Shown here piece after piece: positions 11,222 to 26,050 of a DNA stretch of 64,000 bases (position 1 is its first letter; each line of letters begins with the position of its first letter). The notes beneath the pieces are model-generated. The model was not told the origin of the DNA, did not search any database, and was given only the letters and a program-made list of their open reading frames with translations. This stretch comes from an uncultured Alphaproteobacteria bacterium (GTDB lineage Bacteria > Pseudomonadota > Alphaproteobacteria > Rhizobiales > Xanthobacteraceae): NCBI GenBank assembly GCA_963720985.1, contig CAVRHL010000001.1, positions 166,994-230,993 on the forward strand. Reading direction: 5' to 3'. Position numbers and translations under genes: made by a program.

Positions 11222-11323
11222 GCCTGATTTTCGCGATTAGAAATTCGGCGTTTGTTATTCTGAAAATTTTCTTGACTCTGTCGTGCCGGGCTACTTCCCT
11301 AGCGGCCCTGGGAGAGCCAATCC

Positions 11324-12181
11324 ATGGACGCAATGAACTTCTCCGGGCCGCGCGCCAAGGCCCGACCGCCGCGCGCGCGCGTCGCCGACGCCCGTCACAA
11401 TATTCAATCGGTGGACCGCGCGCTGTTTCTGCTCGAAACCATCGCCGAAGCCGGCGGCGAGGCCTCGCTGACCGATCTCGCCAACCGCACCGGCCTCAAT
11501 ATATCGACTTGCCATCATCTGCTGGCGACGCTCATTCAGCGCGGCTTCGCCGCCAAGATTCCGGGCCGCCGCCTCTATGCCTTGGGCGCGCGCATCCTGC
11601 ATCTCGGACACGCCTGCCTGCAGGTCGATCTGCCGCGCCGCGCGCAGCCTTATCTCGACGAGATCAATCAAGTGACCGGCGAGACCGTTTATCTGGCGGC
11701 GCTGCAAGGCGACGCGGTGGTCACCTTGGCGGTGCGTGAGTCGCGGCATGCGGTGCGCGTCGATACCGGCAAGCTCGGGCGCTTGGAGGCGCCGCACGCG
11801 ACCTCGGTCGGCAAGGCCATCATGGCCTGGCTGCCGGAGCACGAGATCCACCGCATCGTCGCCGGCAGCATGAAGCGCTTCACCGACAACACCATCACGG
11901 ATTTTCCGGCGCTGGTTGAATCGCTGCGCAACGTGCGCCGCACCGGCTGTGCCATCGACCGCGAGGAATTCCTGCCCGGCGTGATTTGCGTCGGCGCCGC
12001 CATCCGCGATCAGGCTGGCACGGTGATCGGCGCGATCAGCGTCTCGACGCCCAGCATGCGGGCGAACGAGGAGCACGTCACGCTCATGCGCGAGGAGGTC
12101 AGTGCCGCAACGCGCGCGCTGTCCGCCGAGTTCGGCGCTCCGGGTCATGCTGGCGTTTACGCGGTTGCCGGCTCAGCCTGA
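11324..12181 (+). CDS. IclR-family transcriptional regulator
   Basis: IQSVDRALFLLE HTH, HATSVGKA and DREEFLPGVICVGAAI. Confidence 0.93.
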   Translation: MDAMNFSGPRAKARPPRARVADARHNIQSVDRALFLLETIAEAGGEASLTDLANRTGLNISTCHHLLATLIQRGFAAKIPGRRLYALGARILHLGHACLQVDLPRRAQPYLDEINQVTGETVYLAALQGDAVVTLAVRESRHAVRVDTGKLGRLEAPHATSVGKAIMAWLPEHEIHRIVAGSMKRFTDNTITDFPALVESLRNVRRTGCAIDREEFLPGVICVGAAIRDQAGTVIGAISVSTPSMRANEEHVTLMREEVSAATRALSAEFGAPGHAGVYAVAGSA

Positions 12182-12206
12182 GCGTCTCGCGCGTGCGCAT
12201 GAATTG

Positions 12207-12236
12207 AAGCCGGCGGCAATCGTCCGCCGGCTTTTT
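12207..12236 (+). terminator. Rho-independent terminator after IclR
   Basis: AAGCCGGCGG-7 nt loop-CCGCCGGCTT followed by a T run. Confidence 0.8.
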
Positions 12237-12386
12237 CGTTAGGCGCCGCGGCCACTGGATTGCCCGGTAAGGGCGTGTTGGGGCACCGCGGCAAAAGTAT
12301 CGCAAAACGGCGTTGAAATTGATTTTCCTCAAGCGCACCAGGGCCGCGATGCGCGATCTTTCCGCCAAACCGCGTTGGAGGATCGC

Positions 12387-13553
12387 ATGGACGCGCCGGC
12401 CGGGGTCAAGACCAGCAAGGACTTTCCGATTCCGCAGAGCATGAAGGCCTGGGTGCTGGGCGATCCGGGCGAGCTGAAGCTCACCGACAAGCCGGTGCCG
12501 GTGCCCAAGCGCGCCGAAGTGCTGGTGCGCATCGATGCCGCGGCGATCTGCGCCACCGATCTCGAAGTGATCTACCAGGGCCCGCCGGGGCTGATTCAAG
12601 GCGGCCTGCCGTTCAACAAGAATTTCACGCCGGGCCACGAATACATGGGCACGGTGGTGGCGCTCGGCCCCGGCGTCGACGAATACAGCATCGGCCAGCG
12701 CGTCGCCTGCGAGATTCACGCCGGCTGCGGCCAGTGCAAGCGCTGCCGCGAGGGCATGTACACCTCGTGCCACAACTACGGCCTCAATTACGGCGAGCAC
12801 GACAAGGGCCACCGCGCCAACGGCTTCACCACCGACGGCGCGTTCTGCGAATACCAGGTCAACAGCATCAACACGCTGGTCGCGATTCCCCACGACATGT
12901 CGGACGAGGAGGGCGCGCTGGTCGTCACCGCCGGCACGGCGATGTATGCGCTGACCGAACTCGGCGGCCTGGTCGCCGGCGAAAGCGTGGTGGTCAGCGG
13001 TGCCGGGCCGATCGGCCTGATGGTGGTCGCGGTGGCGAAAGCGCTCGGCGCCCAGCCGGTGATCCTCACCGAGATGCGCGACGACCGCATGAACATCGCG
13101 CGCCAGCTCGGCGCCGATGCGACGGTCAATGTCGGTCAGGTGCCGGACGTCGTCGCTGCGGTGAAAGCGCTCAACGGCGGCAATGGCGTCGATTACGTGG
13201 TCGAGTGCTCGGCCGCGAGCAAGGCCGTCAACGACGCCGTGCACATGGTCAATCGCGGCGGCAAGGTCTGTCTTGCCGCCTTCACGCACGAGCCGGCTTT
13301 GGTCGACATCGCGCACATCGTCAGCAACAACATCTACGTCTACGGCATCCGCGGCGAGGGCAAGAGCGCGGTGCACCGCGCCGAGGCCTTCATGCGGCAG
13401 AAGCGCTTCGACGCCACCAAGATCCACACCCATACCTTCCCGCTCGCCGATCTGCCGACCGCGATCCGCTACGCCAAGGACCGCGTCGACGACGCCATCA
13501 AGGTGGTGGTCAAGCCGCGGCTCGACGCCGCGCGCAAGGTGGCGGCGGAATAG
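12387..13553 (+). CDS. Zn-dependent medium-chain alcohol dehydrogenase (threonine/sorbitol dehydrogenase-like)
   Basis: ICATD, PGHEYMG, structural Zn motif CGQCKRC...C and GAGPIG. GGAGG RBS before ATG 12387. Confidence 0.92.
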   Translation: MDAPAGVKTSKDFPIPQSMKAWVLGDPGELKLTDKPVPVPKRAEVLVRIDAAAICATDLEVIYQGPPGLIQGGLPFNKNFTPGHEYMGTVVALGPGVDEYSIGQRVACEIHAGCGQCKRCREGMYTSCHNYGLNYGEHDKGHRANGFTTDGAFCEYQVNSINTLVAIPHDMSDEEGALVVTAGTAMYALTELGGLVAGESVVVSGAGPIGLMVVAVAKALGAQPVILTEMRDDRMNIARQLGADATVNVGQVPDVVAAVKALNGGNGVDYVVECSAASKAVNDAVHMVNRGGKVCLAAFTHEPALVDIAHIVSNNIYVYGIRGEGKSAVHRAEAFMRQKRFDATKIHTHTFPLADLPTAIRYAKDRVDDAIKVVVKPRLDAARKVAAE

Positions 13554-13581: not shown

Positions 13582-13602
13582 ATCGGTGCAAAGGGCACCG
13601 CC

Positions 13603-14214
13603 ATGGCCGAGATGCCGTCGATCACATCACTGAAAGCGCTGCGCACCGCCGAAGCGGAATGCCGCCGCTGCCCGCTCTACAAGCACGCGACGCAGGTCGT
13701 GCCCGGCGAAGGGCCGGTGCACTCGCGCATCATGCTGGTCGGCGAACAGCCGGGCGATCAGGAAGACAAGCAGGGCCGGCCCTTCGTCGGCCCGGCCGGG
13801 CGCGTGCTGGCGGAGGCCCTGGCCGATGCCGGCATCGACCGCGACACCGTGTTCGTCACCAACGCCGTCAAGCATTTCAAGTTCGAGCCGCGCGGCAAGC
13901 GCCGCCTGCACAAGCGTCCCAACGTCAACGAAATCGAGCGGTGCCATTGGTGGCTCGATTTCGAGCGCCGCATCGTCAAGCCGGCGATCGTCGTCGCGCT
14001 GGGCGCCACCGCGTTGCGCAGCATCTCGGGGCGTCCGCTTGCCATCAACAAGATCCGCGGCCGCGTGCTGCCGGTCGAAGGCGGCCGCATGCTCGCGACC
14101 ATCCACCCCTCGTATATCTTGCGCATCGAGGACGACGCCGACAAACGCGCGCAATACCGAAAATTTGTCGCGGATTTGAAAGCGTGCGCGAACGCTGCGG
14201 CCGACAAGGCCTGA
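13603..14214 (+). CDS. udgX: UdgX-type family-4 uracil-DNA glycosylase / uracil-DNA binding protein
   Basis: CRRCPL Fe-S ligands, GEQPG, PFVGPAG, TNAVKHFKF, R-loop GKRRLHK and HPSY. Confidence 0.9.
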   Translation: MAEMPSITSLKALRTAEAECRRCPLYKHATQVVPGEGPVHSRIMLVGEQPGDQEDKQGRPFVGPAGRVLAEALADAGIDRDTVFVTNAVKHFKFEPRGKRRLHKRPNVNEIERCHWWLDFERRIVKPAIVVALGATALRSISGRPLAINKIRGRVLPVEGGRMLATIHPSYILRIEDDADKRAQYRKFVADLKACANAAADKA

Positions 14215-14533: not shown

Positions 14534-15535
14534 TTAGAAGCTCATTTTGAGCAGCGTCTCGGCGTTGCCGCAGAATAGCTTGCGTTCATCCGCGGGCGAA
14601 AGCCCTAGGCCCTTCACGGTTTTGATGGTCGGCGCGATCGGCCCGAGCGGCGTATCGGTGGCGAACACGACCTTATCCGCGCCGAAAAACTCGTAGCCGC
14701 AACGGGTCGCCGGCACACCGCCGCCGAACATCGCGGTGTCGGCGTAGAAGTCGTGCAGGTAATCCGTGTGCGGCCGCTTGAGGGACGACAGGATTTGCGA
14801 ATAATCCTCGTGCGACGTTCTTTGCCCCAGCACCTTAAGCCCGGGCCCAACCCGTCCGTCGTAATAAGGGATCATGCCGCCGAGATGGTGGGTGATGATC
14901 TTGAGTTTGGGGTAGCGATCGAGCAACCCGTTGAACACCATGCGCACCATGGCGACCGAGGTTTCGTAGGGCCAGTGGAAGCACCACCACATCTCGAAAC
15001 GCGATTTCTTCTCGGCCGGATAGTCCGGCATCGATGCGGTGCCGACCGGATGCAGCCAGATCGGCAGATCGAGCTCGGCCATCAGCTTGAACAGCGGCTC
15101 GAATTTTGGCTGATCGAGCGGCTCGCCGGCAACGTTCGTATAAATTAGCACGCCGCGCGCGCGAAGATCCTTGATGGCGCGCTGCGCTTCCCTGATCGAG
15201 CCGTCGACCTCGGTTAGGCACAGCGCCGCGGCAAAGGACGGAAACCGCTGCGGATATTTGCGGCACAGCTCCGCCATCGAATCGTTGGCGATGCGCGCGA
15301 GTTGAAGCCCGACGTCCGGCTTGGCGATATCCTCGATCGCCGGATTGGGCAGCGAGATGATCTGCCGGTAGTCGCCGAATTCGTCCATTTCCTTGAAACG
15401 GGCGTCGAGATCGAACAGTTTTTTGATGCCGCGCAGCCGTTGCCCGATATTGCTGAGGTTCGGCGCGACCTTGCTCATCTCCTGGAAAAAGCGGTCCGGA
15501 TAGATGTGACAATAAATGTCGATGATCGTGCTCAT
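14534..15535 (-). CDS. Amidohydrolase_2-family protein (ACMSD/aromatic decarboxylase or hydratase-like)
   Basis: IDIYCHIYP, IWLHP, THHLGG, YADTA and FATDTP. ATGA overlap with the ABC permease. Confidence 0.88.
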   Translation of the reverse strand: MSTIIDIYCHIYPDRFFQEMSKVAPNLSNIGQRLRGIKKLFDLDARFKEMDEFGDYRQIISLPNPAIEDIAKPDVGLQLARIANDSMAELCRKYPQRFPSFAAALCLTEVDGSIREAQRAIKDLRARGVLIYTNVAGEPLDQPKFEPLFKLMAELDLPIWLHPVGTASMPDYPAEKKSRFEMWWCFHWPYETSVAMVRMVFNGLLDRYPKLKIITHHLGGMIPYYDGRVGPGLKVLGQRTSHEDYSQILSSLKRPHTDYLHDFYADTAMFGGGVPATRCGYEFFGADKVVFATDTPLGPIAPTIKTVKGLGLSPADERKLFCGNAETLLKMSF

Positions 15536-16551
15536 GGGTGTCCTCCCGATTCATTTTCCAGCACCAGCCGCCGTTGCAGCGGCAACGCCTGCCAGCCGAA
15601 GCGCTCCGCGATCAGGCCCCAGAGCCCCTTCGGCGCCCACAGCATGACCACGATGGCGACCGCGCCCATCATCAGCAAGTAGAGACTGCCGAGATCGGCC
15701 AGCGTCTGGCGCAGCGCGAAGAACACGATGGTGCCGATGATCGGCCCCTCGATGCGACCAATGCCGCCGATCACCGTGATGAAAATCACGAAAGCGGTCC
15801 AGTCGTTAACGCTGAACGCGGTATCCGGCGAGATGCGCAGCTTCATGAGGAAAATCAGCGCGCCGATCATCGCCGTGCCGAAGCCGGTCAGCACGTAGAC
15901 GATAAGCTTGATGCGGGCGACGTCGATGCCGTTGCTCTGCGCCGCCAGCTCGTTGTCGCGGATGGCGGTCAGCGCCAGGCCGTGGCGCGAGCGCAGCAGC
16001 GCGACGATGGCGCCGAGCACGGCGGCGGTCAGCGCCAGCGCCAGCCAATAGATTTCGAATTCGCGGATTTGCCGGCTCGGCGCCATGGCGATCACCGCCG
16101 CGGCCGGCAGGCTGATGCCGGAGCCGCCGCCGAGCACCGAGATTTGCGAGGCCAGCAGGCGGAACACCTCCGCCACCACCCAGGTGCCGATGGCGAAATA
16201 AGCGCCCCGCAGGCGGAAGATCAGCGCCGCGACGGGGACGGCGACCAGCGCGCCGATCGGTCCGGCGATGAAAATCGCCGCGATCGGATGCACGCCGGCA
16301 AGGATCACCAGCGCGAACAGCAGATAACCGCCGAGCCCGACAAAGGCCTGCTGGCCGACCGACACTAGGCCGGCGTAACCGGCGAGCAGATTCCACGAGC
16401 TCGCCAGCGCGACGAAGGTGAAAATCTCGGCGAGCAGGCGCAGCATCGCGCGCTCGCCCCAGAACGGCGCCAGCGCCAGCACGATCAATGCGACTGCGAT
16501 CAGCGTGACGCCAATGCGGCTCGAACGCGTGGCGTGCTCGACGCGCGTCAT
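15532..16551 (-). CDS. HAAT-family ABC transporter permease (LivM-like)
   Basis: WNLLAGYAGLVSVGQ, RLRGAYFAIGT, AIRDNE and IGGIGRIEGP. Confidence 0.92.
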   Translation of the reverse strand: MTRVEHATRSSRIGVTLIAVALIVLALAPFWGERAMLRLLAEIFTFVALASSWNLLAGYAGLVSVGQQAFVGLGGYLLFALVILAGVHPIAAIFIAGPIGALVAVPVAALIFRLRGAYFAIGTWVVAEVFRLLASQISVLGGGSGISLPAAAVIAMAPSRQIREFEIYWLALALTAAVLGAIVALLRSRHGLALTAIRDNELAAQSNGIDVARIKLIVYVLTGFGTAMIGALIFLMKLRISPDTAFSVNDWTAFVIFITVIGGIGRIEGPIIGTIVFFALRQTLADLGSLYLLMMGAVAIVVMLWAPKGLWGLIAERFGWQALPLQRRLVLENESGGHP

Positions 16552-17414
16552 CCCGATACCTTGGGAAACAGGCCCTGCGGGCGCACCGCCAGGATGACGA
16601 GGAACACGATATGGCCGGCGAGCACCTGCCAGCCGGGGTCGATTTGCGCGCCGACCGCCTGCGACACGCCGAGGACGACGCCGCCGATCAGCGTGCCCCA
16701 CATGTTGCCGAGCCCGCCGATGATCACCGCCTCGAAGCCGAAGATCAGCCGCGCCGGGCCGATCGACGGATCGAAATTGGCGCGCACCGCCAGGAATACG
16801 CCGGCGATGGCGACGACGGCAAGCGACAGCGCCATCGCCATGGCGAACACGTGGCGGGTGTCGAGCCCCATCAATTGCGCCACCGCCTGATCATCGGAGG
16901 TGGCGCGGAAGGCGCGGCCGAGCGCGGTGTAATAGAACAGCGCCTGCAATCCGGCGATCACCGCCACCGCGACAGCAAACTGGATGAGCGGCAACACGCC
17001 GACCCACACGCCCTGCAGCGCCTGGAAGGTCTGGATCTCGATGGCGCCAGCCTGCAGCTTGCGGCTGTCGGCGGTGAACCATTCGAGCAGGCCGTTCTGG
17101 ATGATGATCGACAGCCCGAAGGTGACCAGCAGCGGCGGTAGCAAATCGTCGCCCAGCGTGAAATTGAGCAGCCCGCGCTGCAGCGCGTAACCGATGACGG
17201 CCATGATCGGCACCACCAGCAGCAGCGAGACGAGCGGGTCGATGCCGAGCGCCTGCGTCACCACCAACGCGACGTAAGCCGCGAGCACGATCAGGTCGCC
17301 GTGCGCGATGTTCACGAGCCGCATCACGCCGAAGATCAGCGACAGGCCGGCGGCGAACATGGCGTAGAGCCCGCCGATCAGCACGCCTTGCAGGATGACG
17401 TTGAGCCATTGCAT
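16548..17414 (-). CDS. HAAT-family ABC transporter permease (LivH-like)
   Basis: Starts MQWLNVILQG; GLSLIFGVMRLVNIAHG, GRAFRA and IIGGLG. Confidence 0.92.
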   Translation of the reverse strand: MQWLNVILQGVLIGGLYAMFAAGLSLIFGVMRLVNIAHGDLIVLAAYVALVVTQALGIDPLVSLLLVVPIMAVIGYALQRGLLNFTLGDDLLPPLLVTFGLSIIIQNGLLEWFTADSRKLQAGAIEIQTFQALQGVWVGVLPLIQFAVAVAVIAGLQALFYYTALGRAFRATSDDQAVAQLMGLDTRHVFAMAMALSLAVVAIAGVFLAVRANFDPSIGPARLIFGFEAVIIGGLGNMWGTLIGGVVLGVSQAVGAQIDPGWQVLAGHIVFLVILAVRPQGLFPKVSG

Positions 17415-17419
17415 CGCCG

Positions 17420-18124
17420 TCACACCCCGAAATATGCCGCCGAGATCAACTCGCGCGTCAGCTCGTGCGCAGCGCCTTGCAGCGCGATGCGGCCTTCCTG
17501 TAGGCAGTAGACCTGGCGCGCGGCTTCCAGCGCCTGCGCGATGTCCTGCTCGACCACGATCAGCGACAAGCCGTCCGCCACGATTGCCGGCAGTTGCGCG
17601 TAGATGTCGCGCACCACGATCGGCGCCAGGCCGAGGCTGATCTCGTCGCACAGCAACAGGCGCGGGTTCGACATCAGCGCGCGGGCGATTGCCGCCATCT
17701 GTTGTTGCCCGCCGGACAGCGCGGGGGCGGGCAGGCGCCGCCGCTCGGCCAGCACGGGAAAGAGCCGATAGACGCGATCGAGTGTCCACGGGCCGGGGCG
17801 TCGCGATTGGCCGCCGATCAGCAGATTCTCCTCGACCGTCAGCGACGGAAACAATCGCCGGCCTTCCGGCACCAGCGCGATGCCGCGCTTGAGCACGTCG
17901 AACGCCGGCGCACCGCCGGTCGGCTTGCCGTCGAAAAAAATATCGCCGCGGCGCGGCGCCATCATGCCGGCGATGGTTTTCAGCAGCGTACTCTTGCCGG
18001 CGCCGTTGGCGCCGATCACCGCCACCACTTCGCCCGGCTCGACCCGCAGCGAGACGCCGAACAGCGCCTGGAAGTCACCGTAGAAGGCGTCGATGCCGCG
18101 CACCTCGAGCAGTGGGTCAGGCAT
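17420..18124 (-). CDS. ABC transporter ATP-binding protein (LivF-like)
   Basis: GANGAGKST, LSGGQQQ and LLLCDE. Confidence 0.93.
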   Translation of the reverse strand: MPDPLLEVRGIDAFYGDFQALFGVSLRVEPGEVVAVIGANGAGKSTLLKTIAGMMAPRRGDIFFDGKPTGGAPAFDVLKRGIALVPEGRRLFPSLTVEENLLIGGQSRRPGPWTLDRVYRLFPVLAERRRLPAPALSGGQQQMAAIARALMSNPRLLLCDEISLGLAPIVVRDIYAQLPAIVADGLSLIVVEQDIAQALEAARQVYCLQEGRIALQGAAHELTRELISAAYFGV

Positions 18125-18845
18125 CCGCTTCGATCCCCATGTAGATCTCCGCCACCTGCGGGCTCTTGATCACCGCGTGCGGCTCGCCTTCGGCGATGAA
18201 CTTGCCGCCGTGCAGAACCAGCAAGCGATCGACCGTCGCGAGCAACGCGTGCACCACGTGCTCGATCCACACAATCGACACGCCGCCGGCGCGCACGTCC
18301 TTGATCAGCGCCACCAGCGTGGCGCATTCGTGCTCGGTCAAGCCGCCGGCGACCTCGTCGAGCAGCAGCACGCGTGGCTTGGTCGCCAGCGCGCGCGCCA
18401 GCTCGAGGCGCTTGCGGTCGAGCAGCGTCAGACTGCCGGCGCGCCGGTTGGCCTTGTCGGCGAGACCGCAGCGGCTCAGCAACTCCGCGCAAGAATCGTA
18501 AACCGAAGCTTCGCTTGCATTCCCTGCAAAGGCCGCCGCCACCACCACGTTCTCGAACACGGTCATGCCGGAAAATGGCTGCGGGATCTGGAACGAGCGC
18601 GCGATGCCTTTGCGGCAGCGCCGCTCCGGCGGCAGGCGGGTGATATCCTCGCCGGCGTAAACGACGCGTCCGCCGTCGGGTGTCACCGTGCCGGTGGCGA
18701 TGCCGAACAGCGTGGTCTTGCCGGCGCCGTTCGGGCCGATGATGCCGAGCGCCTCGCCCTCGTTGAGCGCGAGGTCGATACCGCCGGCCACCACCACGGC
18801 CCCGAACCGCTTCGAAATATTATCCAGCGTGAGGATCGGGGCCAT
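18117..18845 (-). CDS. ABC transporter ATP-binding protein (LivG-like)
   Basis: Starts MAPILT; [19 protein letters not shown] and IEH. Confidence 0.93.
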   Translation of the reverse strand: MAPILTLDNISKRFGAVVVAGGIDLALNEGEALGIIGPNGAGKTTLFGIATGTVTPDGGRVVYAGEDITRLPPERRCRKGIARSFQIPQPFSGMTVFENVVVAAAFAGNASEASVYDSCAELLSRCGLADKANRRAGSLTLLDRKRLELARALATKPRVLLLDEVAGGLTEHECATLVALIKDVRAGGVSIVWIEHVVHALLATVDRLLVLHGGKFIAEGEPHAVIKSPQVAEIYMGIEADA

Positions 18846-18859
18846 AGGGTTTGGTGCGA

Positions 18860-20137
18860 TCAGGCGATCGGCACCAGTTTGCCGCCGAGCGGAATTTCCG
18901 GCGCGGTCTTGTTCTCGGCGATTACCAGGTCGAACTTGCCGTTCTTGCGCTGCCACTGCCCGGCAACCAGCGGCGTCTTGGTGACATTTTTCACCGGCTG
19001 CCCGGTCCACTGGATGTGGCCGACCATCGACTGGTAGTTGGTGGCGACAATCGAATCCAGCACCGCTTTCGGATCGTGGGGGTCCTTGGCGCGCTTGAGC
19101 ACGTCGATCGCCACCTCGAACAGCGCGTGCTGGAAGCCGATCGGCTGCGTCCACGGCCGATTGGTCGCCTTGGTATAGCCGTCGGTCAATTGCTGCGCGC
19201 TCTGGCCGGTGAGGCCGGACTTGAACGGATGGTGCGGCGTCCACCAGATTTCGCTGGTCAGCCCGTTGCCGCGTTCGCCGAGCGAGTCGATGACCGAGGG
19301 GAACAGCAGCGCCTTGCCGATGGTGACGATCTTCGGCTTGAAGCCCTGCTGCGCCGCCTGCGACCAGAATGTGGCGAAGTCGGGCGGGATCATGTTGCCG
19401 GTGACGATCTCGGCGCCTGCCGCCTTGAACGCCGAAATCTGCGAGGTGAAATCGTTGTTCATCAATTGATAGCGGCCTGGATCGAGCAGCTTGTAGCCGG
19501 CCTTGGCGAGTGCGGGCGGCAGGCCGAGCTTGGCATCGCCCCAGGCATTGCCGTCGGCGTCGTTCGGGAACAGGCCGCCGACCACCTTGTTGGTCGGCAG
19601 TTCGTCCCACAGCACCAAAAACGCGCCGATCACGTCTTCGAGGCCCCAGAAGAAGTGATAAGTCCATGTGAAGCCCTTCTGCGGTTCGCCCTTGCGGCCG
19701 AAGAAATAAGGCTGCCACGGGCAGTTGGTGGTGATGCAGGGCACCTCGTTGACCTCGGCCTGGTCGGCGACCGGGTTGGTGGTGTCGGGCGTCGCCGAGG
19801 CAACGATCAGATTGACCTTGTCGCCGAGGATCAGTTCGGACGCGACTTCCGAGGCGCGGCTGGCGTTCGACTGGCTGTCCTTGGAGATGATCTCGACTTT
19901 GTAGGTCTTGCCGCCGCTTTGCAGCCCTTTGCTCAAGATGCCGCGCACCTGATCGAGGATATAACCGTCGGCCTCGCCGAAGCCGGCGAGCGGCCCGGTC
20001 TTCGGACTGACATGGCCGATCTTGATCACCTGCGATTGCGCGTTCGCCGGAATGGCACGGAGAACCGCCGGCGCGGCCAAGGCACCGAGGCCGGTCTTGA
20101 CCAGAGTGCGACGTGAGATCGTCTTGCTGTCGGTCAT
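18860..20137 (-). CDS. HAAT-family ABC substrate-binding protein, Tat-exported
   Basis: GGAGGAG RBS, SRRTLVK Tat motif and IKIGHVSPKTGPLAGFG. Confidence 0.92.
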   Translation of the reverse strand: MTDSKTISRRTLVKTGLGALAAPAVLRAIPANAQSQVIKIGHVSPKTGPLAGFGEADGYILDQVRGILSKGLQSGGKTYKVEIISKDSQSNASRASEVASELILGDKVNLIVASATPDTTNPVADQAEVNEVPCITTNCPWQPYFFGRKGEPQKGFTWTYHFFWGLEDVIGAFLVLWDELPTNKVVGGLFPNDADGNAWGDAKLGLPPALAKAGYKLLDPGRYQLMNNDFTSQISAFKAAGAEIVTGNMIPPDFATFWSQAAQQGFKPKIVTIGKALLFPSVIDSLGERGNGLTSEIWWTPHHPFKSGLTGQSAQQLTDGYTKATNRPWTQPIGFQHALFEVAIDVLKRAKDPHDPKAVLDSIVATNYQSMVGHIQWTGQPVKNVTKTPLVAGQWQRKNGKFDLVIAENKTAPEIPLGGKLVPIA

Positions 20138-20157
20138 CGTCTCCTCCTTTGCGCGGT

Positions 20158-21066
20158 TTATCTGTCCTGGGCGCGCGCTCTCTTGAGATGCTGCAACACT
20201 TTCAAACGCAGTGCCTGCTGCTGCGCAGGGCTCCACTTGCGGAAGCCCTCGCCGGACTTGAAGCCGAGCTTGCCGGCCTTCACCAGTTTTTTCAGATAAG
20301 GCGACGGGCCCGGCCGGCTGTCGATGTCGCGCAGCACAAACTTGTGGATCGCCAGCGTCAGATCGGTGCCGACCATGTCGGCATTTTCCAAGGGGCCTAG
20401 CGCCGCCAGCCGGCGGCCGAACGACGCCTTGATGACGTTGTCGACGGTCTCGGCGTCGCAGATGCCTTGCTCGATGAGCGCGATGGCCTCGCGCCATAGT
20501 GCGTGCTGCAAGCGATTGCCGATGAAGCCCGGCACGTCCTTCTTCACGTGCGCCGGTTTCTTGCCGGCGGCGGCGTGCAATTTCATGGTGAAGTCGATGG
20601 CGGCCGGGCTCGTCCATTGCGTCTCGATCACCTCGACCAGCGGCACCAGGAACGGCGGGTTCCACCAATGGGTGCCGAGCGCGCGGTCGCGCCGCTTGAG
20701 GCCTTTCATGATCTTGGTGATCGGGATGACCGAGGTGTTGCTGGCGAGGATGGTGTCCGGCCGCACGTGTTTCTCGATCTCGGCGAATAGTTTCTGTTTG
20801 AGCGGCAGGTCTTCCAGCACGGCCTCGACCACGTAATCGGCCTCGCGCACGGCGGCCGCCAGATGAGGCACCGGCGTGACGCGCTCGACCGCGCGCTGAT
20901 CGTCGCCGAGGTCTTTCAAATTCGTGAGGATGCGTGTCTTGGCGCTGTCGAGGCTCGCCATCACCGAATCAAAGATCGTCACCTCATGGCCGGCGAGCGC
21001 GAACACCTGGGCGATGCCGTGGCCCATCAGGCCGGCGCCGATCACCGCGATGCGCGCCTTAGCCAT
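20158..21066 (-). CDS. 3-hydroxyacyl-CoA dehydrogenase-family protein (candidate 3-hydroxy-5-oxohexanoate dehydrogenase)
   Basis: GAGLMG, VEAVLE, ASNTS, THWWNPP and GFIGNRLQ. The specific role is inferred from gene context. Confidence 0.88.
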   Translation of the reverse strand: MAKARIAVIGAGLMGHGIAQVFALAGHEVTIFDSVMASLDSAKTRILTNLKDLGDDQRAVERVTPVPHLAAAVREADYVVEAVLEDLPLKQKLFAEIEKHVRPDTILASNTSVIPITKIMKGLKRRDRALGTHWWNPPFLVPLVEVIETQWTSPAAIDFTMKLHAAAGKKPAHVKKDVPGFIGNRLQHALWREAIALIEQGICDAETVDNVIKASFGRRLAALGPLENADMVGTDLTLAIHKFVLRDIDSRPGPSPYLKKLVKAGKLGFKSGEGFRKWSPAQQQALRLKVLQHLKRARAQDR

Positions 21067-21069
21067 GAT

Positions 21070-21873
21070 TTACCCCGCCGTATAGCCGCCGTCGGCGTAG
21101 AGGATGTGGCCGGTGTAGAAGTCCGACGCTTTCGAAGCGAGGAACAGCAGCGGCCCGGCGAGGTCTTCCGGTTCGCCCAGCCGGCCTTTCGGCACCCGCG
21201 CCAGGAAACCCTTGCGCACAAACTGCGCCCGCTCGGTGTCCTCGTACATCCAGGCGGTAAGTGGCGACCGGAAAACCGTCGGCCCCAGCGCGTTGACGGT
21301 GATGCCTTGTTCGCCCCATTCGCAGCCGAGCGCCTTAGTGATGCCGTCGACCGCAGACTTCGACGCGCAATAAGCGGTGTAGCCGGCCGGATGGCCGAGC
21401 AACCCGCGCGCCGACGAGGTGAGGATCACCTTGCCGCCCTGACCCTGCTTGAGCATCTGCTTGCCGGCGGCGCGCGCCATCAGCCAGGACTGGGTGACAT
21501 TGGCGTCCATCACGTCGAGAAATTCCTGCGGCTTGAGGTCGACGATCTTGGCCACCTTGTTGAGGCCGGAGGCGACCACCAGGATGTCGAGCCGGCCGAA
21601 GGTGTCGACTGCCGCCTTGACGATCTTGTCGCAGCTTTCTTCCGAGCTCGGGCGCAACGCGACGATTTCGGTCTTGCCGCCGAGCTCGGCGCATTCGGCC
21701 GCGACCTTTTTCAGTTCGTCCTGCTTGCTGCCCGCCAGCACGACGTTGGCGCCGGCGCCAGCCAAAGTCTTGGCCGCCAGCGCGCCGAACGCGCCCGACG
21801 CGCCGGTGACGACGGCGGTCTTGCCCTTCACGTCGAACAAAGCGAGCGGATTCTTCAGGAAAGCTTCGGACAT
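21070..21873 (-). CDS. SDR oxidoreductase, phloroglucinol reductase-like
   Basis: TGASGAFG, GGKVILTSSAR, GYTAYCASK, PTVFRSPLTAWM and GRLGEPED. The SDR family call is firm; the PGR-like call is from recalled motif similarity. Confidence 0.85.
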   Translation of the reverse strand: MSEAFLKNPLALFDVKGKTAVVTGASGAFGALAAKTLAGAGANVVLAGSKQDELKKVAAECAELGGKTEIVALRPSSEESCDKIVKAAVDTFGRLDILVVASGLNKVAKIVDLKPQEFLDVMDANVTQSWLMARAAGKQMLKQGQGGKVILTSSARGLLGHPAGYTAYCASKSAVDGITKALGCEWGEQGITVNALGPTVFRSPLTAWMYEDTERAQFVRKGFLARVPKGRLGEPEDLAGPLLFLASKASDFYTGHILYADGGYTAG

Positions 21874-21901
21874 TTGACGCTCCTCACACAACTTTTTTCT
21901 T

Positions 21902-21989
21902 CGTCATGGCCGGGCTTGTCCCGGCCATCCACGCCTTGGTTGCTGCGGTCCGTAAGGCGTGGATGCCCGGCACAAGGCCGGGCATGACG
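21902..21989. repeat. Complete Rhizobiales REP-like dyad element inside the catabolic operon
   Basis: CGTCATGGCCGGGCTTGTCCCGGCCATCCACGCCTT...AAGGCGTGGATGCCCGGCACAAGGCCGGGCATGACG: two inverted arms, each an internal hairpin. Confidence 0.85.
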
Positions 21990-21998
21990 CCTCCGGCG

Positions 21999-22340
21999 TC
22001 ACTTCGGCGGCATCGCCACCGCGACGACGATCGAACACACCTCGTTGCCGCGGTTGATGATCTCGCGCGTTTCGTTCGGCTCGATGACGCAGCAGTCGTT
22101 CGCCTTCAGCACCGTCTCCTTGCCGTTGACGATGACGGTCAACTCGCCGCGCAGCACGAAATAGACCTTCTCCGGCGGCGAGGCGTCCGGGCCGGCGCCG
22201 CCGCCGGGCAGGAAATGCGACAAGCCGCAAATGAGCCCTTTGGTGCCGCCGGCTTCGGCGCCGAACAGGCGCAGTGAGGTGCAGCCGCGGTGATTGGGCG
22301 CATCGTAAGCCTTGGCGTCGGCGAAACGTTTGACGTGCAT
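21999..22340 (-). CDS. Cupin-domain protein
   Basis: 113 aa starting MHVKRF; SHFLPGGGAG, EKVYFVLRGEL and IEPNETREIIN. Confidence 0.85.
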   Translation of the reverse strand: MHVKRFADAKAYDAPNHRGCTSLRLFGAEAGGTKGLICGLSHFLPGGGAGPDASPPEKVYFVLRGELTVIVNGKETVLKANDCCVIEPNETREIINRGNEVCSIVVAVAMPPK

Positions 22341-22345
22341 GGCGT

Positions 22346-23197
22346 TTATCCCTGCTTGAATGTCTTGCCGCGTTCGATGCGGAATTTCTGCGACGGATCG
22401 ACGATGGCGACCAGGCGCACGATGCAGCCATCGCCGCGATCCCAGTTCCAGGGAAAATAGGCGAAGGTGACGCGCTTGCCGGTGACCTTGTCGATGTCGC
22501 CGCCGACGTTCTCTATGCCCATGATGCCGTTCTTGAACAGGATGCGGTGCACCGGCTCCCATTCCGGGTGATCGTCCTTCCAGTCGCGGCCACCGGACCA
22601 TTCGCGATATTCCTCGGCAAGGTGAGGATGCAGCGGTCCGTTGCGGTGCGGGCCAATGGCGGTGGCGAGCGGATGATCGTTGGCCTGCGTATCGTGGCCG
22701 ACCACCTTGACCTTCTTCTTGACGAACCACTCGCCGGCCGACGGCACGAAGCCGGGCGCGCGGCAGAAATAGTCCTCCGAGTCCTCGTAGAACTTGTGCC
22801 AGCCGGTGTTGACAATCACCACGTCGCGCGGCCGCACGATCTTGCCGCAGGCTTTTTCAAGGTCGTCGCCAGTGATCGGCTCCCATTTCTCTTTCGGGAT
22901 CGACACCACGATACCGGAGCCGAAGAAATGCGGCAGCGGCACCTCGTCGATGAAGGGCGTGCCCTGGATCACGTGCGCCGGCGCGTCGATATGGGTGGTG
23001 TTGTGCATCGAGGTGGTGATGCGTTGCGACAGCACCCCCGACTTCGCCATGTAGTGGATACGCTCGATCTTGACGTCCTCGAAGTACGGCCAGTTCGGCG
23101 ACTGATAGCCGAAGCGATGGGACAGGTTGTAGAACTCCAGCCCCATGCTGTTCTTGAGGTTTTCTTCGAACATCACGCCGCGAATTCGTTTTGCCAC
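22346..23197 (-). CDS. Metal-dependent cyclase-family hydrolase (KynB fold; candidate dihydrophloroglucinol cyclohydrolase)
   Basis: MHNTTHIDAPAH metal motif, NTGWH and GIENV. GGAGG RBS before GTG. Confidence 0.88.
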   Translation of the reverse strand: MAKRIRGVMFEENLKNSMGLEFYNLSHRFGYQSPNWPYFEDVKIERIHYMAKSGVLSQRITTSMHNTTHIDAPAHVIQGTPFIDEVPLPHFFGSGIVVSIPKEKWEPITGDDLEKACGKIVRPRDVVIVNTGWHKFYEDSEDYFCRAPGFVPSAGEWFVKKKVKVVGHDTQANDHPLATAIGPHRNGPLHPHLAEEYREWSGGRDWKDDHPEWEPVHRILFKNGIMGIENVGGDIDKVTGKRVTFAYFPWNWDRGDGCIVRLVAIVDPSQKFRIERGKTFKQG

Positions 23198-23253
23198 GGC
23201 ATCCTCCCTTAGTTTCGTTTCGCGTGTTTCGATCGGTGTCGCCGCGGCGTCGT

Positions 23254-24024
23254 TCAGGCCGCGGCGGAATTCATATGCATCTCCATGGCGCGCTTGGTGG
23301 CGAGCAGTCGTTCGGCGATCAGCGCCTGCTGGTCCAGGAAGCGCTGGCTCGGCACCGGCACCGAAATGGCGACGGCATTGCCGAGCGGATCCTGCAGGGC
23401 GACGCCGGCGGCGCAGATGCCGAGCGTGTGTTCTTCACGATCGAAGGCGACGCCGCTGCGGCGCGCCACTTTGATGTCCGCCAGCAGCGTATCGAAACGG
23501 GTGTGCGTCTTCGGCGTGCGCGCTTCGTACGTGCGTCCGATCAACGTCTCGATGGCCGGATCGCTAAGTTGCGCCAGATAGGCCTTGCCGTTGGCGGTGC
23601 AGTAGAGCGGAAAGGTCTCGCCCACCGCCGACACCGTGCGCAGGCGCTGCGGGCCGATCACCTGGTCGATGAACACCAGATGGTCCTTGCCGACGGTCGA
23701 GAGGTCCACGGTCTCGTGCAGTTCCTCGCTCAGGCGCTCGAGGTACGGCCGCGCCAGCGCGATGAAATCGCTGCGCACCGAAGCGGCGAGCCGCAGGATG
23801 GTCGGCCCGAGGCGCACGCGGCCGTTGGGCGTTGCCGCGATCACCAGCTTTTCGGTTTCCAGCGCGGCGACGATGCGCTGAACGGTCGAGCGCGCCAGAT
23901 TTACCCGTTGGGCAATTTGGCCGAGGCTCAGGCCGGCATTCTCGTGTTCCAGCGCGCGCAAGATCGTGGCGGCGCGCGCGATCACCTGCACCTGGCTCTT
24001 GTCGTTGGTGACGTGGCGGTTCAT
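23254..24024 (-). CDS. IclR-family transcriptional regulator of the catabolic cluster
   Basis: VQVIARAATILRAL HTH, YCTANGKA and DREEHTLGICA. Confidence 0.92.
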   Translation of the reverse strand: MNRHVTNDKSQVQVIARAATILRALEHENAGLSLGQIAQRVNLARSTVQRIVAALETEKLVIAATPNGRVRLGPTILRLAASVRSDFIALARPYLERLSEELHETVDLSTVGKDHLVFIDQVIGPQRLRTVSAVGETFPLYCTANGKAYLAQLSDPAIETLIGRTYEARTPKTHTRFDTLLADIKVARRSGVAFDREEHTLGICAAGVALQDPLGNAVAISVPVPSQRFLDQQALIAERLLATKRAMEMHMNSAAA

Positions 24025-24071
24025 CGACAACAACTCGACACTGACGCGGCGGCCGGCCCGCCTTGCATGAT

Positions 24072-24099
24072 GGTACACGTTAGCCCAATATGCGGTACA
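24072..24099. promoter_or_regulatory. Possible IclR operator in the divergent promoter
   Basis: GGTACA occurs twice, 22 bp apart (24072 and 24094), between the divergent IclR and decarboxylase genes. Confidence 0.3.
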
Positions 24100-24136
24100 G
24101 GTAAAAACGAAAAAACGTGACGGTTGAGGAAACTCC

Positions 24137-25081
24137 ATGGTGAAAAAGATCGCGCTCGAGGAGCACTTCATCGATCCTGCCACCGAGGCCTATTGGCGGC
24201 CGACCATGGTCGACGTGGCACCGGCCAAGACCGCTCAACTCTATGCGGCGCTGACTGATTTCGGCGAGCGACGGCTGGCGATGATGGACAAGACCGGCAT
24301 CGCCCGCGCGGTGCTGGCGATCGCCGGCCCCGGCGTGCAGGCGGAGCACGATACCGCGACCGCTATCCGCAACGCGCGGGCCTCGAACGATTTTCTCGCC
24401 AAGGAAGTACAGAAGAAGCCCGACCGCTATTCGGGCTTCGCCCATCTGGCGATGCAGGACGCCAAGGCCGCGGCCGACGAACTGGAGCGCTGCATGCGCG
24501 ACCTCAAGTTCCTGGGCGCCATGATCGACGGGCACACCAACGGCAAATATCTCGACGACCGCTCCTACGATCCGTTCTGGGAACGCGCCGCGGCCTTGGG
24601 CGCGCCGATCTATCTGCATCCGGCCGATCCGCCGGCGCCGTTGAAGTCGATCGAAGGCTACAACGTGCTGGCGCGGCCGATGTGGGGCTGGGGCGTGGAG
24701 ACCGGCTCGCACGCGCTGCGCATCATCTGCGGCGGCGTTTTCCACCGTTACCCGAAGGCCAAGCTCATCCTCGGCCATCTCGGCGAGACGTTGCCGTTCC
24801 AGCTTTGGCGCTTCGACAGCCGCTCGGCGCCTTACGGCTGGAACCTGCCGAAGCCGCCGTCGCAATACCTCAAGGAGAATGTCTGGGTGACGACCTCCGG
24901 CATGTACGACCTCCCGCCGGTGCGCTGCTCACTCGACGCGCTGGGGCGCGACCACGTCATGTTCTCGGCCGACTATCCGTTCGACTGGCCGGGCTGCGAC
25001 TTCATCGACACGGTGCCGCTCGACGAGGGCCTGCGCGCCGATATCACCTACAACAACGCGGCGAAGCTGCTGGGGCTCTAA
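24137..25081 (+). CDS. Amidohydrolase-family non-oxidative aromatic acid decarboxylase (gamma-resorcylate / 2,3-dihydroxybenzoate decarboxylase-like)
   Basis: KIALEEHF (ExH metal ligands), IYLHP, LGHLGETLP and MFSADYPF. Confidence 0.88.
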   Translation: MVKKIALEEHFIDPATEAYWRPTMVDVAPAKTAQLYAALTDFGERRLAMMDKTGIARAVLAIAGPGVQAEHDTATAIRNARASNDFLAKEVQKKPDRYSGFAHLAMQDAKAAADELERCMRDLKFLGAMIDGHTNGKYLDDRSYDPFWERAAALGAPIYLHPADPPAPLKSIEGYNVLARPMWGWGVETGSHALRIICGGVFHRYPKAKLILGHLGETLPFQLWRFDSRSAPYGWNLPKPPSQYLKENVWVTTSGMYDLPPVRCSLDALGRDHVMFSADYPFDWPGCDFIDTVPLDEGLRADITYNNAAKLLGL

Positions 25082-25084
25082 AGC

Positions 25085-26050
25085 TCACTTCGCCTCGATC
25101 ACCCTGATCGGCTTGCCGTCGAGCCAGGCGCGGATGTCCTCGACCACGCCGGTGTAAAGCACACGGTAGTTCCGTTCGCTGACGTAGCCGAGATGCGGCG
25201 TGAGCATGACATTGTCCATCTTGCGGAACGGATGGTTGAGCGGCAGCGGCTCGACGTCGAACACGTCGAGGCCGGCGCCGGCGATCGACTTCGCGTTGAG
25301 CGCCGCGATCAGCGCCTTTTCGTCGACGATCGGCCCGCGCGAGGTGTTGATGAGGTAGGCGGACTTCTTCATCAGCCCGAGCTCGTGCGCGCCGACCAGG
25401 CCGCGCGAGCGCTCGCCGAGCACCACATGAATGGTGAGGACGTCGGCGTTGCGGAACAGGTCGTCCTTCGAAACGTAGTCGACGCCCGCCTCCTTCGCCT
25501 TGTCCGGCGTCAGGTTCGGGCTCCAGGCGACGACCCTCATGCCGAGCGCCTTGGCGATGGTTGCGACGCGCTGGCCGAGCTTGCCGAGGCCCAGCGTGCC
25601 GAGCGTCTTGCCTTCCACATCGTCTCCCATGGTGATCTGCCACGGCGCCCCGGCTTTCATGCGGGCGTTCTCGAAGCCGATGCGGCGGGTCAATTCCAGC
25701 ATCAGGCCGATGGCGATCGAGGCTGTCGGGTTGCCGAAGCCGCCGGTGCCGCAGACCGGAATGCCGCACTCGGCCGCCGCCTTGACGTCGAAGGAATTGT
25801 TGCGGGCGCCGGTGGTGATCAAGAGCTTCAGGTCGGGCAGCGCCTCGATCACCTTGCGCGGGAAGGGGGTGCGCTCGCGCATGCCGACGATGATGGCGAA
25901 GCCCTGCAGCGCCTTGATCGCCGCGTCGGGGCCAGCGAACGGCTTGTCGAACACGGTGATGTCGACGTCTTTGGCGACCGGCGACCAGTCGGCAAGTTTC
26001 AACGCGACGTTCTGATAATCGTCGAGGATGGCTGCCTTGACCATACGCAC
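25085..26050 (-). CDS. D-2-hydroxyacid dehydrogenase
   Basis: AILDDYQ, MRERTPF, GLGKLG, INTSRG and TPHLGY. Confidence 0.92.
   Translation of the reverse strand: MRMVKAAILDDYQNVALKLADWSPVAKDVDITVFDKPFAGPDAAIKALQGFAIIVGMRERTPFPRKVIEALPDLKLLITTGARNNSFDVKAAAECGIPVCGTGGFGNPTASIAIGLMLELTRRIGFENARMKAGAPWQITMGDDVEGKTLGTLGLGKLGQRVATIAKALGMRVVAWSPNLTPDKAKEAGVDYVSKDDLFRNADVLTIHVVLGERSRGLVGAHELGLMKKSAYLINTSRGPIVDEKALIAALNAKSIAGAGLDVFDVEPLPLNHPFRKMDNVMLTPHLGYVSERNYRVLYTGVVEDIRAWLDGKPIRVIEAK

Follow-up and report, generated by a model that had tools for sequence, protein, structure and literature searches.

A candidate operon for the uptake and oxygen-independent ring opening of phloroglucinol-type compounds in an uncultured member of the Xanthobacteraceae

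Results and discussion

The window analysed here is a stretch of 64,000 nucleotides from the genome of an uncultured alphaproteobacterium (GenBank assembly GCA_963720985.1, contig CAVRHL010000001.1), whose closest named relative is Pseudolabrys taiwanensis (Xanthobacteraceae, Hyphomicrobiales, Alphaproteobacteria). Twelve tightly packed genes were found between positions 14534 and 25081 of the window by open reading frame listing, translation and Pfam/NCBIfam scans. Judging from their predicted products, these genes probably form an IclR-controlled operon for the uptake and the oxygen-independent ring opening of phloroglucinol-type compounds. Three of them carry this reading. As shown by sequence comparison, the short-chain dehydrogenase/reductase (SDR) P0001, the cyclase-family protein P0002 and the 3-hydroxyacyl-CoA dehydrogenase (3HCDH) homologue P0003 are the predicted orthologues of phloroglucinol reductase (PGR), dihydrophloroglucinol cyclohydrolase (DPGC) and (S)-3-hydroxy-5-oxohexanoate dehydrogenase (TfD), respectively. 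These enzymes form a pathway that Zhou et al. (2023, mBio, PMC10470551) characterised in Clostridium scatologenes. A preliminary description of this DNA had already proposed a reductive ring opening of phloroglucinol, and this interpretation is supported by the reciprocal best hits and the conserved motifs described below.

Core enzymes of the proposed pathway

The reference locus for the comparisons was found by scanning the genome collection with the published quantitative PCR (qPCR) primer for DPGC, which led to Clostridium thailandense PL3. In this locus the reductase adjoins the cyclase, whose N-terminus is almost identical to that of the C. scatologenes enzyme (CsDPGC) in Fig. S4 of Zhou et al. 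(PMC10470551), and a dehydrogenase that differs very little from the printed CsTfD is encoded in the same genome. The remaining published primers for PGR, DPGC, TfD and triacetate lyase (TAL) match C. thailandense genes with 1-3 mismatches; for the TAL qPCR primer no exact match was found in the loci scanned, and fuzzy matching succeeded. The comparison with the clostridial enzymes that the preliminary description had suggested as a check yielded reciprocal best hits for the SDR, the cyclase and the dehydrogenase alike.

P0001 is 44% identical over its full length (E 1e-72) to the C. thailandense PGR that adjoins DPGC. When this PGR was used as the query in the window genome, P0001 scored 212 bits versus 150 bits for the next paralogue, and in the opposite direction PGR came first among the 14 SDR matches in C. 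thailandense (211 versus 124 bits). The families adh_short and adh_short_C2 match P0001 at E 1e-42 to 1e-47, and the protein shows the glycine-rich dinucleotide motif and the Ser-Tyr-Lys catalytic set of a classical SDR (TGASGAFG, SSAR and YCASK). Its top PDB match is 5g4k/5g4l (E 3.9e-50), the next one having an E value of 7e-42. Moreover, P0001 has the motifs that the preliminary description named as typical of phloroglucinol reductases (LFDVK, GGKVILxSSAR, GYTxYCxSK, PTVFRSxLTxWM and GRLGEPED). They can be aligned with both 5g4k and the C. thailandense PGR, the aligned blocks being PTVFRSxLTxWM, GRLxEPED, GGK...S..R and GYTxYC.

Regarding the cyclase, P0002 aligns with the two pieces of the C. 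thailandense DPGC at 39% (N part) and 53% (C part) identity, about 41% overall, and it is the reciprocal best hit, with 127 bits versus 48 bits for the next paralogue in the window genome. PF04199 is matched at E 6e-33. The metal motif HxxxHxDxPxH is kept, since HNTTHIDAPAH of P0002 aligns with HTGTHCDAPRH of CsDPGC (Fig. S4, PMC10470551), and Trp20 and Tyr22 of CsDPGC (WPY) are also kept, NWPYF being aligned with RWPYF. According to Zhou et al. (PMC10470551), this Trp/Tyr pair separates DPGC from isatin hydrolase. Furthermore, the cyclase gene is close to the genes of the PGR and TfD orthologues. The more distant relatives of P0002 among the protein representatives are mostly fragments, and two full-length ones are located in unrelated contexts, so a similarity of 36-40% does not imply the pathway. 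At 43% identity, a homologue from Chloroflexota is found in an arrangement of cyclase, BKACE (PF05853, the family of TAL) and SDR.

The dehydrogenase P0003 is 48% identical to the C. thailandense TfD (E 2e-104). Each is the best match of the other, among 14 3HCDH matches in C. thailandense and among 6 in the window genome, where TfD as the query scores 296 bits with P0003 and 130 bits with the next paralogue. The catalytic Ser, His and Asn blocks are kept (NTSV, GTHWWNPP and GNRLQHALWREA), and GNRLQH aligns with the corresponding TfD block. Among the PDB entries, P0003 is closest to 4om8, a CoA-independent FHMPC dehydrogenase. Taken as a whole, these matches make P0003 the predicted orthologue of TfD and not of the CoA-dependent paralogues.

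The best NCBIfam names of the three enzymes are generic (gluconate 5-dehydrogenase, arylformamidase and 3-hydroxyacyl-CoA dehydrogenase), and JGI calls the cyclase homologues kynurenine formamidase. This would fit a set of neighbours without a shared aromatic pathway, that is, a gluconate/ketoacyl-type SDR, a kynurenine formamidase, a 3-hydroxybutyryl-CoA dehydrogenase and a branched-chain amino-acid ABC transporter. Such an explanation is very improbable, as all the generic matches are far below the curated cut-offs (for arylformamidase, with a cut-off of 223, the cyclase scores 41 bits), PGR, DPGC and TfD give far stronger matches, and the genes stay together as one block in different families of the order.

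Proposed pathway and triacetate cleavage

In the proposed pathway, the binding protein exported by the twin-arginine system and the ABC transporter would import phloroglucinol and/or its carboxylate, and P0005, probably together with P0006, would decarboxylate 2,4,6-trihydroxybenzoate or a similar acid. Phloroglucinol would be reduced by PGR to dihydrophloroglucinol with NAD(P)H, the Mn-type cyclohydrolase would convert the latter into (S)-3-hydroxy-5-oxohexanoate, and TfD would turn this compound into triacetate. The cleavage of triacetate would take place outside the operon, through an unlinked BKACE (contig C9) or another enzyme, and the resulting acetoacetate would enter CoA metabolism via the CoA-transferases of the genome, where several pairs of them are encoded. 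Phloroglucinol is the probable substrate, and 2,4,6-trihydroxybenzoate is a more tentative one.

The family scans of the interval 14534-25081 detected no oxygenase, CoA-ligase, thiolase or BKACE, which bears out the preliminary description of a cluster lacking the first three. PF05853 has no match in the whole window. Since no TAL is linked, the operon corresponds to the three-enzyme core and not to the four-gene set PGR, DPGC, TfD and TAL of Zhou et al. The only BKACE copies of the genome are at C9:884765 and, some 25 kb beyond the window, at C1:141524. The BKACEs linked to alphaproteobacterial clusters share 56% identity with the C9 copy. In Muricoccus both kinds of BKACE are present, cluster-linked and stand-alone.

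Several points weigh against the assignment of this operon to phloroglucinol. Compared with the Clostridium TAL candidate, the two BKACEs of the genome show 32% and 29% identity, and neither is a TAL orthologue; in the phylogenetic tree, the C9 copy groups with strong support with the stand-alone copies of P. taiwanensis and Muricoccus, not with the cluster-linked BKACEs, and the window genome is 81% complete. The references used here are the C. thailandense orthologues and not the assayed C. scatologenes proteins, and the C. thailandense PL3 DPGC is frameshifted in its draft assembly (L009:2541-3480, pieces of 224 and 126 amino acids), which could be a sequencing error or a pseudogene. The PDB entry 5g4k, the top match of P0001, has a generic title and is presumably the Clostridium phloroglucinol reductase of Conradt et al. 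2016. In addition, the TR(S/N) motif is not kept in P0001, which has AGSK where the Clostridium enzymes have TGRG or TGRN. According to Zhou et al. (PMC10470551), this motif contacts the 2'-phosphate of NADPH and is conserved among PGRs. Its loss bears on the cofactor preference and not on the substrate pocket, and P0001 is therefore regarded as a PGR orthologue with an uncertain NADH/NADPH preference. The literature searched yielded neither enzyme or growth data for any alphaproteobacterial member nor an experimental test of the pathway in an aerobic alphaproteobacterium. Finally, an identity of 41-48% to the characterised enzymes leaves the substrate specificity unfixed, and substituted phloroglucinols are possible.

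This last point, the closeness of P0005 to gamma-resorcylate (2,6-dihydroxybenzoate) decarboxylase and the link of the mycobacterial relatives of the cluster with the handling of phloretin and acylphloroglucinols would agree with an operon acting on another 1,3-dihydroxy aromatic or on a substituted phloroglucinol (acyl- or methyl-phloroglucinols, or resorcinol derived from 2,6-dihydroxybenzoate). We consider this quite unlikely. The resorcinol route gives 5-oxohexanoate, which would leave the TfD orthologue without a 3-hydroxy substrate; moreover, the substrate-recognition Trp/Tyr of DPGC is kept and all three enzymes are reciprocal best hits of phloroglucinol enzymes. The ring opening of phloroglucinol itself is kept as the probable function.

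The C9 BKACE was also considered as a relocated cluster TAL, and this was rejected as unproven, as the protein groups with the stand-alone paralogue. A dedicated TAL orthologue appears to be absent from the Pseudolabrys lineage, in which the stand-alone paralogue might serve.

Putative feeder decarboxylases

P0005, encoded divergently from the operon, has gamma-resorcylate decarboxylase 3s4t/4qro as its best PDB match (E 5.6e-65, residues 3-312 aligned). It aligns end to end with the gamma-resorcylate decarboxylases of Polaromonas sp. JS666 (3s4t/4qro) and Rhizobium (2dvt), and the ExH, His, His/Glu and Asp metal and catalytic positions are kept in EEHF, YLHP, LGHLGE and SADYP. The divergent ExH-type aromatic decarboxylase of the preliminary description is thus a full-length homologue of this enzyme with an intact metal site. 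Divergent copies of P0005 are present in P. taiwanensis and in two contigs from metagenome-assembled genomes (MAGs; the three loci are L029-L031) at 63-89% identity, and in locus L046 a copy of 51% identity follows the BKACE gene. That P0005 works as a feeder converting 2,4,6-trihydroxybenzoate into phloroglucinol is plausible on chemical grounds, and the divergent placement in the relatives and the L046 copy behind BKACE also speak for it. Gamma-resorcylate decarboxylases feed the oxygenase-dependent hydroxyquinol route via resorcinol, whereas the neighbours of P0005 are reductive phloroglucinol genes.

The terminal gene of the run encodes P0006, a second protein of the amidohydrolase-2 family (Amidohydro_2). 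Its best PDB match is the uncharacterised 3ij6, in which the DxYxH motif of P0006 is also found; LigW2 and gamma-resorcylate decarboxylase come next. In L029-L031 it occupies the same slot, where other clusters have BKACE, and no close orthologue was found elsewhere in the sample of the order. Homologues at 46-52% identity were examined by fetching six loci and scanning the neighbours in four of them. All four adjoin TAXI-TRAP transporters and IclR, LysR or MarR regulators; a FAD ring hydroxylase is next to the homologue in two, one of which also has a hydroxyquinol 1,2-dioxygenase and a maleylacetate reductase, and a UbiD decarboxylase in one. No phloroglucinol genes were found beside the homologues in these four loci. 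Because its homologues are located in contexts of aromatic-acid decarboxylation, P0006 is more likely to be a second feeder decarboxylase for an aromatic acid than an enzyme acting on triacetate.

In favour of the latter role, P0006 lies exactly in the slot that BKACE takes in 16 of the 18 other single-cyclase clusters. In this reading, P0006 would replace TAL in an otherwise unchanged core pathway and cleave or decarboxylate triacetate without CoA, either as a C-C hydrolase giving acetoacetate and acetate or as a beta-keto-acid decarboxylase giving acetylacetone. None of the four clusters carrying P0006 has a linked BKACE, the 4-nt overlap of its gene with that of permease 2 points to translational coupling, and the stand-alone BKACE of the window genome and of P. 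taiwanensis is the paralogue that Muricoccus has in addition to its cluster-linked copy. PF04909 also includes the C-C hydrolase LigY, which matches P0006 weakly (E 4e-7). However, the nearest characterised relatives of P0006 are the aromatic decarboxylases mentioned above, and the setting of its homologues in the scanned loci (four of the six) is one of aromatic-acid decarboxylation. Moreover, the Pseudolabrys lineage has gained the other decarboxylase too, which suggests that this variant of the operon concerns carboxylated substrates. Triacetate cleavage by P0006 is therefore rather unlikely; if true, it would be a new activity for the amidohydrolase-2 family and a new last step of the pathway.

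Two loci with relatives of P0006 should be mentioned. In genome G625 (L060, 388-14639), a homologue of 46% identity lies between an IclR gene and a FAD ring hydroxylase, with a TAXI-TRAP transporter, a hydroxyquinol 1,2-dioxygenase, a maleylacetate reductase and an ABC transporter nearby, the binding protein of the latter being 54% identical to that of the window. This looks like a resorcylate-type pathway using the uncharacterised decarboxylase subfamily of P0006. The window genome itself also encodes a paralogue of about 48% identity (C9:39609-40586; L055:9574-10593), beside a 757-aa molybdopterin oxidoreductase and a LivJ-type ABC transporter.

Possible supply from pyrogallol and habitat

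Another putative entry point was found at C4:24581-27655 (L062:6582-9656), which encodes a 1024-aa close homologue of the large subunit of pyrogallol-phloroglucinol transhydroxylase. It matches the Pelobacter acidigallici large subunit (PDB 4v4c) over nearly the whole chain with an E value of 4e-290, and it is followed by an Fe-S protein similar to the beta subunit (L062:10498-11334). Given this homologue in the genome, pyrogallol, and hence gallate or tannins, may also feed the pathway. The gene adjoins acyl-CoA metabolism and xanthine-dehydrogenase-type genes. A similar transhydroxylase gene lies about 7 kb from a decayed phloroglucinol cluster in locus L021.

Concerning the habitat, near-identical DNA is present in soil and rhizosphere metagenomes from 18 studies. 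In the metatranscriptome run X20, contigs about 90% alike cover parts of the ABC and dehydrogenase genes only. This run was set aside as evidence of expression in the window organism, as the contigs come from relatives at best and DNA carry-over is possible.

The cupin as a companion of the cyclase

The gene following the cyclase encodes the 113-aa cupin P0004, which is present in all of the 27 clusters fetched. NCBIfam names its family "beta-D-galactosidase" after Rv1717 of Mycobacterium tuberculosis (88 bits, cut-off 175), a cupin that has been reported as a beta-galactosidase (PMC7873859). The His/His/Glu/His metal ligands of the cupin motifs are not conserved in the 21 aligned orthologues: His42 is replaced by Gln in most of them and the position in motif 2 is always Arg. 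Y12, H17, R24, Y60, R92 and N96 do not vary. This small cupin without a metal site is a conserved companion of the cyclase, and its context points to a role in phloroglucinol catabolism. As P0004 occurs with the cyclase, the SDR and the 3HCDH in all 27 clusters and lacks the metal site, the galactosidase name of the Rv1717 family is questioned.

Two further observations concern this pair of genes. A function of P0004 as a Dke1-type diketone dioxygenase, or as another metal-dependent cupin dioxygenase, was rejected because the metal site is not conserved. In several very close relatives (P0009, P0011 and others) the cyclase and the cupin are fused in proteins of 390-404 aa with both PF04199 and PF07883. 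In the window (21999-23197) the two genes are separate, 5 nt apart and in different frames, and in other relatives their stop and start codons overlap by 1 nt.

Distribution and forms of the cluster

In even samples of 401 genomes each, 4 genomes of the class and 25 of the order (from 14 of 150 genera) had an orthologue of the cyclase. The 12 other sampled members of the family of the window had none, which indicates a patchy distribution. To describe the forms of the cluster, 16 single-cyclase clusters from the order were fetched together with those of Muricoccus/Roseomonas nepalensis and Pseudoruegeria sp. SK021. The gene order is repeated beyond chance, as it is seen again in P. taiwanensis, in the two MAG contigs and, without the last gene, in 16 further same-order clusters.

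The common form consists of IclR, cyclase, cupin, SDR, 3HCDH, binding protein, two ATPases, two permeases and BKACE. The first five are present in all the alphaproteobacterial representatives of this form (M./R. nepalensis, Pseudoruegeria sp. SK021 and 14 same-order genomes), and 13 clusters with this type of transporter have the binding protein, two ATPases and two permeases in the same order as the window. Their proteins are 53-82% identical to those of the window. A BKACE is located at the end of these clusters or within them, and both Amidohydro_2 genes are missing, except that in G793 a decarboxylase homologue follows BKACE. BKACE is adjacent in 16 of the 18 single-cyclase clusters, and a terminal amidohydrolase of the P0006 type in none. 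The binding protein is 64-70% identical in the variant-A clusters that carry it and 80-92% in L029-L031.

Furthermore, in all the single-cyclase clusters fetched, with the exception of the decayed L021, an IclR gene is located beside that of the cyclase. The importer, which the preliminary description had already assigned to the system, is confirmed by this comparison as a conserved component of the operon. Importer, IclR and cupin are therefore standard in the proteobacterial version and not peculiar to the window.

The form of the window, with the divergent decarboxylase and with P0006 in the BKACE slot, was found in P. taiwanensis and the two MAG contigs (operon genes 79-96% identical). The complete genome of P. 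taiwanensis (CP031417, 2642632-2663636) has an identical architecture of twelve genes, including both Amidohydro_2 genes. Its operon proteins are 79-88% identical and its divergent decarboxylase 63% identical to those of the window, and it represents a different species or genus.

A third form was observed in loci L027 and L051-L054 (genomes G111, G698, G778, G523 and G576). It has two cyclase paralogues in tandem, which are 41-51% identical to P0002; SDR, 3HCDH and cupin come next, and no importer of the window type is linked. Some genomes also carry the common form. In L021, an ENA MAG contig, the SDR and 3HCDH genes are broken (11313-13018) and the importer is missing, while the cyclase is 89% identical. 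The cluster may be decaying here, or the breaks may be an artefact of the assembly.

Comparison with known systems

The three core enzymes are common to the window and to the PGR-DPGC-TfD-TAL cluster of C. scatologenes (PMC10470551), with identities of 44%, about 41% and 48% as estimated through the near-identical C. thailandense cluster. The window differs in having no linked TAL (BKACE), thiolase or CoA-transferase, in its ABC importer in place of the MFS transporter, in the IclR control and in the addition of the cupin and two Amidohydro_2 genes. In addition, its cyclase lacks the insertion of about 30 residues of the clostridial enzymes and its SDR lacks the TR(S/N) motif of the clostridial PGR. 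The region Rv1714-Rv1717 of M. tuberculosis encodes a cupin of the 113-aa class, from the same NCBIfam family as P0004. An earlier paper had pointed out the resemblance of Rv1714-Rv1716 to the Clostridium genes, the M. tuberculosis SDR, fadB3 and cyclase being about 40% identical to the Clostridium cluster (PMC5894108), and Zhou et al. count the region as a phloroglucinol cluster (PMC10470551).

The preliminary description overstated the novelty of this pathway in a lineage of mostly aerobic soil bacteria, as such clusters had already been predicted in many Alphaproteobacteria in 2023. The bioinformatic predictions include marine alpha- and gammaproteobacteria, Mesorhizobium loti, Bradyrhizobium, Agrobacterium, Burkholderia and Mycobacterium, with Roseibium and Ruegeria among the alphaproteobacterial carriers, and the P. 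taiwanensis cyclase (A0A346A4B6) appears in the UniProt table of the DPGC family (PMC10470551). PGR and transhydroxylase have also been described in aerobic SAR116 in a 2026 preprint. No description of an operon that has two amidohydrolase-2 genes and lacks a linked TAL was found in the literature searched; a preprint on phloroglucinol and triacetate (bioRxiv 2022.10.28.514148) concerns biosynthesis and was set aside.

What the window adds is a lineage of rhizosphere and soil Xanthobacteraceae to the predicted degraders and an operon form with built-in putative feeder decarboxylases. Phloroglucinol is the hub for the mineralisation of flavonoid A-rings and many tannins, and the opening of its ring without oxygen speaks against the idea that phenolics are preserved wherever oxygenases cannot act. 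P. taiwanensis, a cultured strain with the same operon, would be practical for testing the pathway.

Gene layout and neighbouring genes

The coordinates of all the genes are listed in Table 1. Each gene of the co-oriented, tight run from IclR to the amidohydrolase, and the divergent decarboxylase, was confirmed at its coordinates, in agreement with the preliminary description. The intergenic gaps across the run range from -8 to 125 nt and the final four junctions overlap by 1-8 nt.

Table 1. Genes of the candidate operon and the adjacent dehydrogenase, with positions in the window
Gene product	Position	Strand	Domains and remarks
Amidohydro_2 protein P0006, terminal gene, DxYxH first motif	14534-15535	-	PF04909
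ABC permease 2 (LivM-like)	15532-16551	-	PF02653 (BPD_transp_2); position conserved in relatives
ABC permease 1 (LivH-like)	16548-17420	-	PF02653 (BPD_transp_2); position conserved in relatives
ABC ATPase 2	17420-18124	-	PF00005; position conserved in relatives
ABC ATPase 1	18117-18851	-	PF00005; position conserved in relatives
Periplasmic binding protein, LivJ-like, twin-arginine signal	18860-20137	-	Peripla_BP_6; N-terminal SRRTLVK read from the sequence
3HCDH homologue P0003, predicted TfD orthologue	20158-21066	-	3HCDH_N and 3HCDH
SDR P0001, predicted PGR orthologue	21070-21873	-	adh_short, adh_short_C2
Cupin_2 protein P0004, 113 aa, Rv1717 family	21999-22340	-	PF07883; NCBIfam NF050094 below cut-off
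Cyclase-family protein P0002, predicted DPGC orthologue	22346-23197	-	PF04199
IclR-family regulator P0007	23254-24030	-	HTH_IclR and IclR_C; opens the minus-strand run
Amidohydro_2 protein P0005, divergent, gamma-resorcylate-decarboxylase-like, predicted non-oxidative hydroxybenzoate decarboxylase	24137-25081	+	PF04909
D-2-hydroxyacid dehydrogenase, convergent with P0005, membership of the system uncertain	25085-26050	-	PF02826/PF00389

The D-2-hydroxyacid dehydrogenase is 86% identical and equally positioned in L030, and weaker copies are located near the clusters of L021, L022 and L046. At the other end, a gene of the uracil-DNA glycosylase family (13600-14214) is convergent with the end of the operon. 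P. taiwanensis has the same neighbour downstream, and this boundary of the operon is thus conserved.

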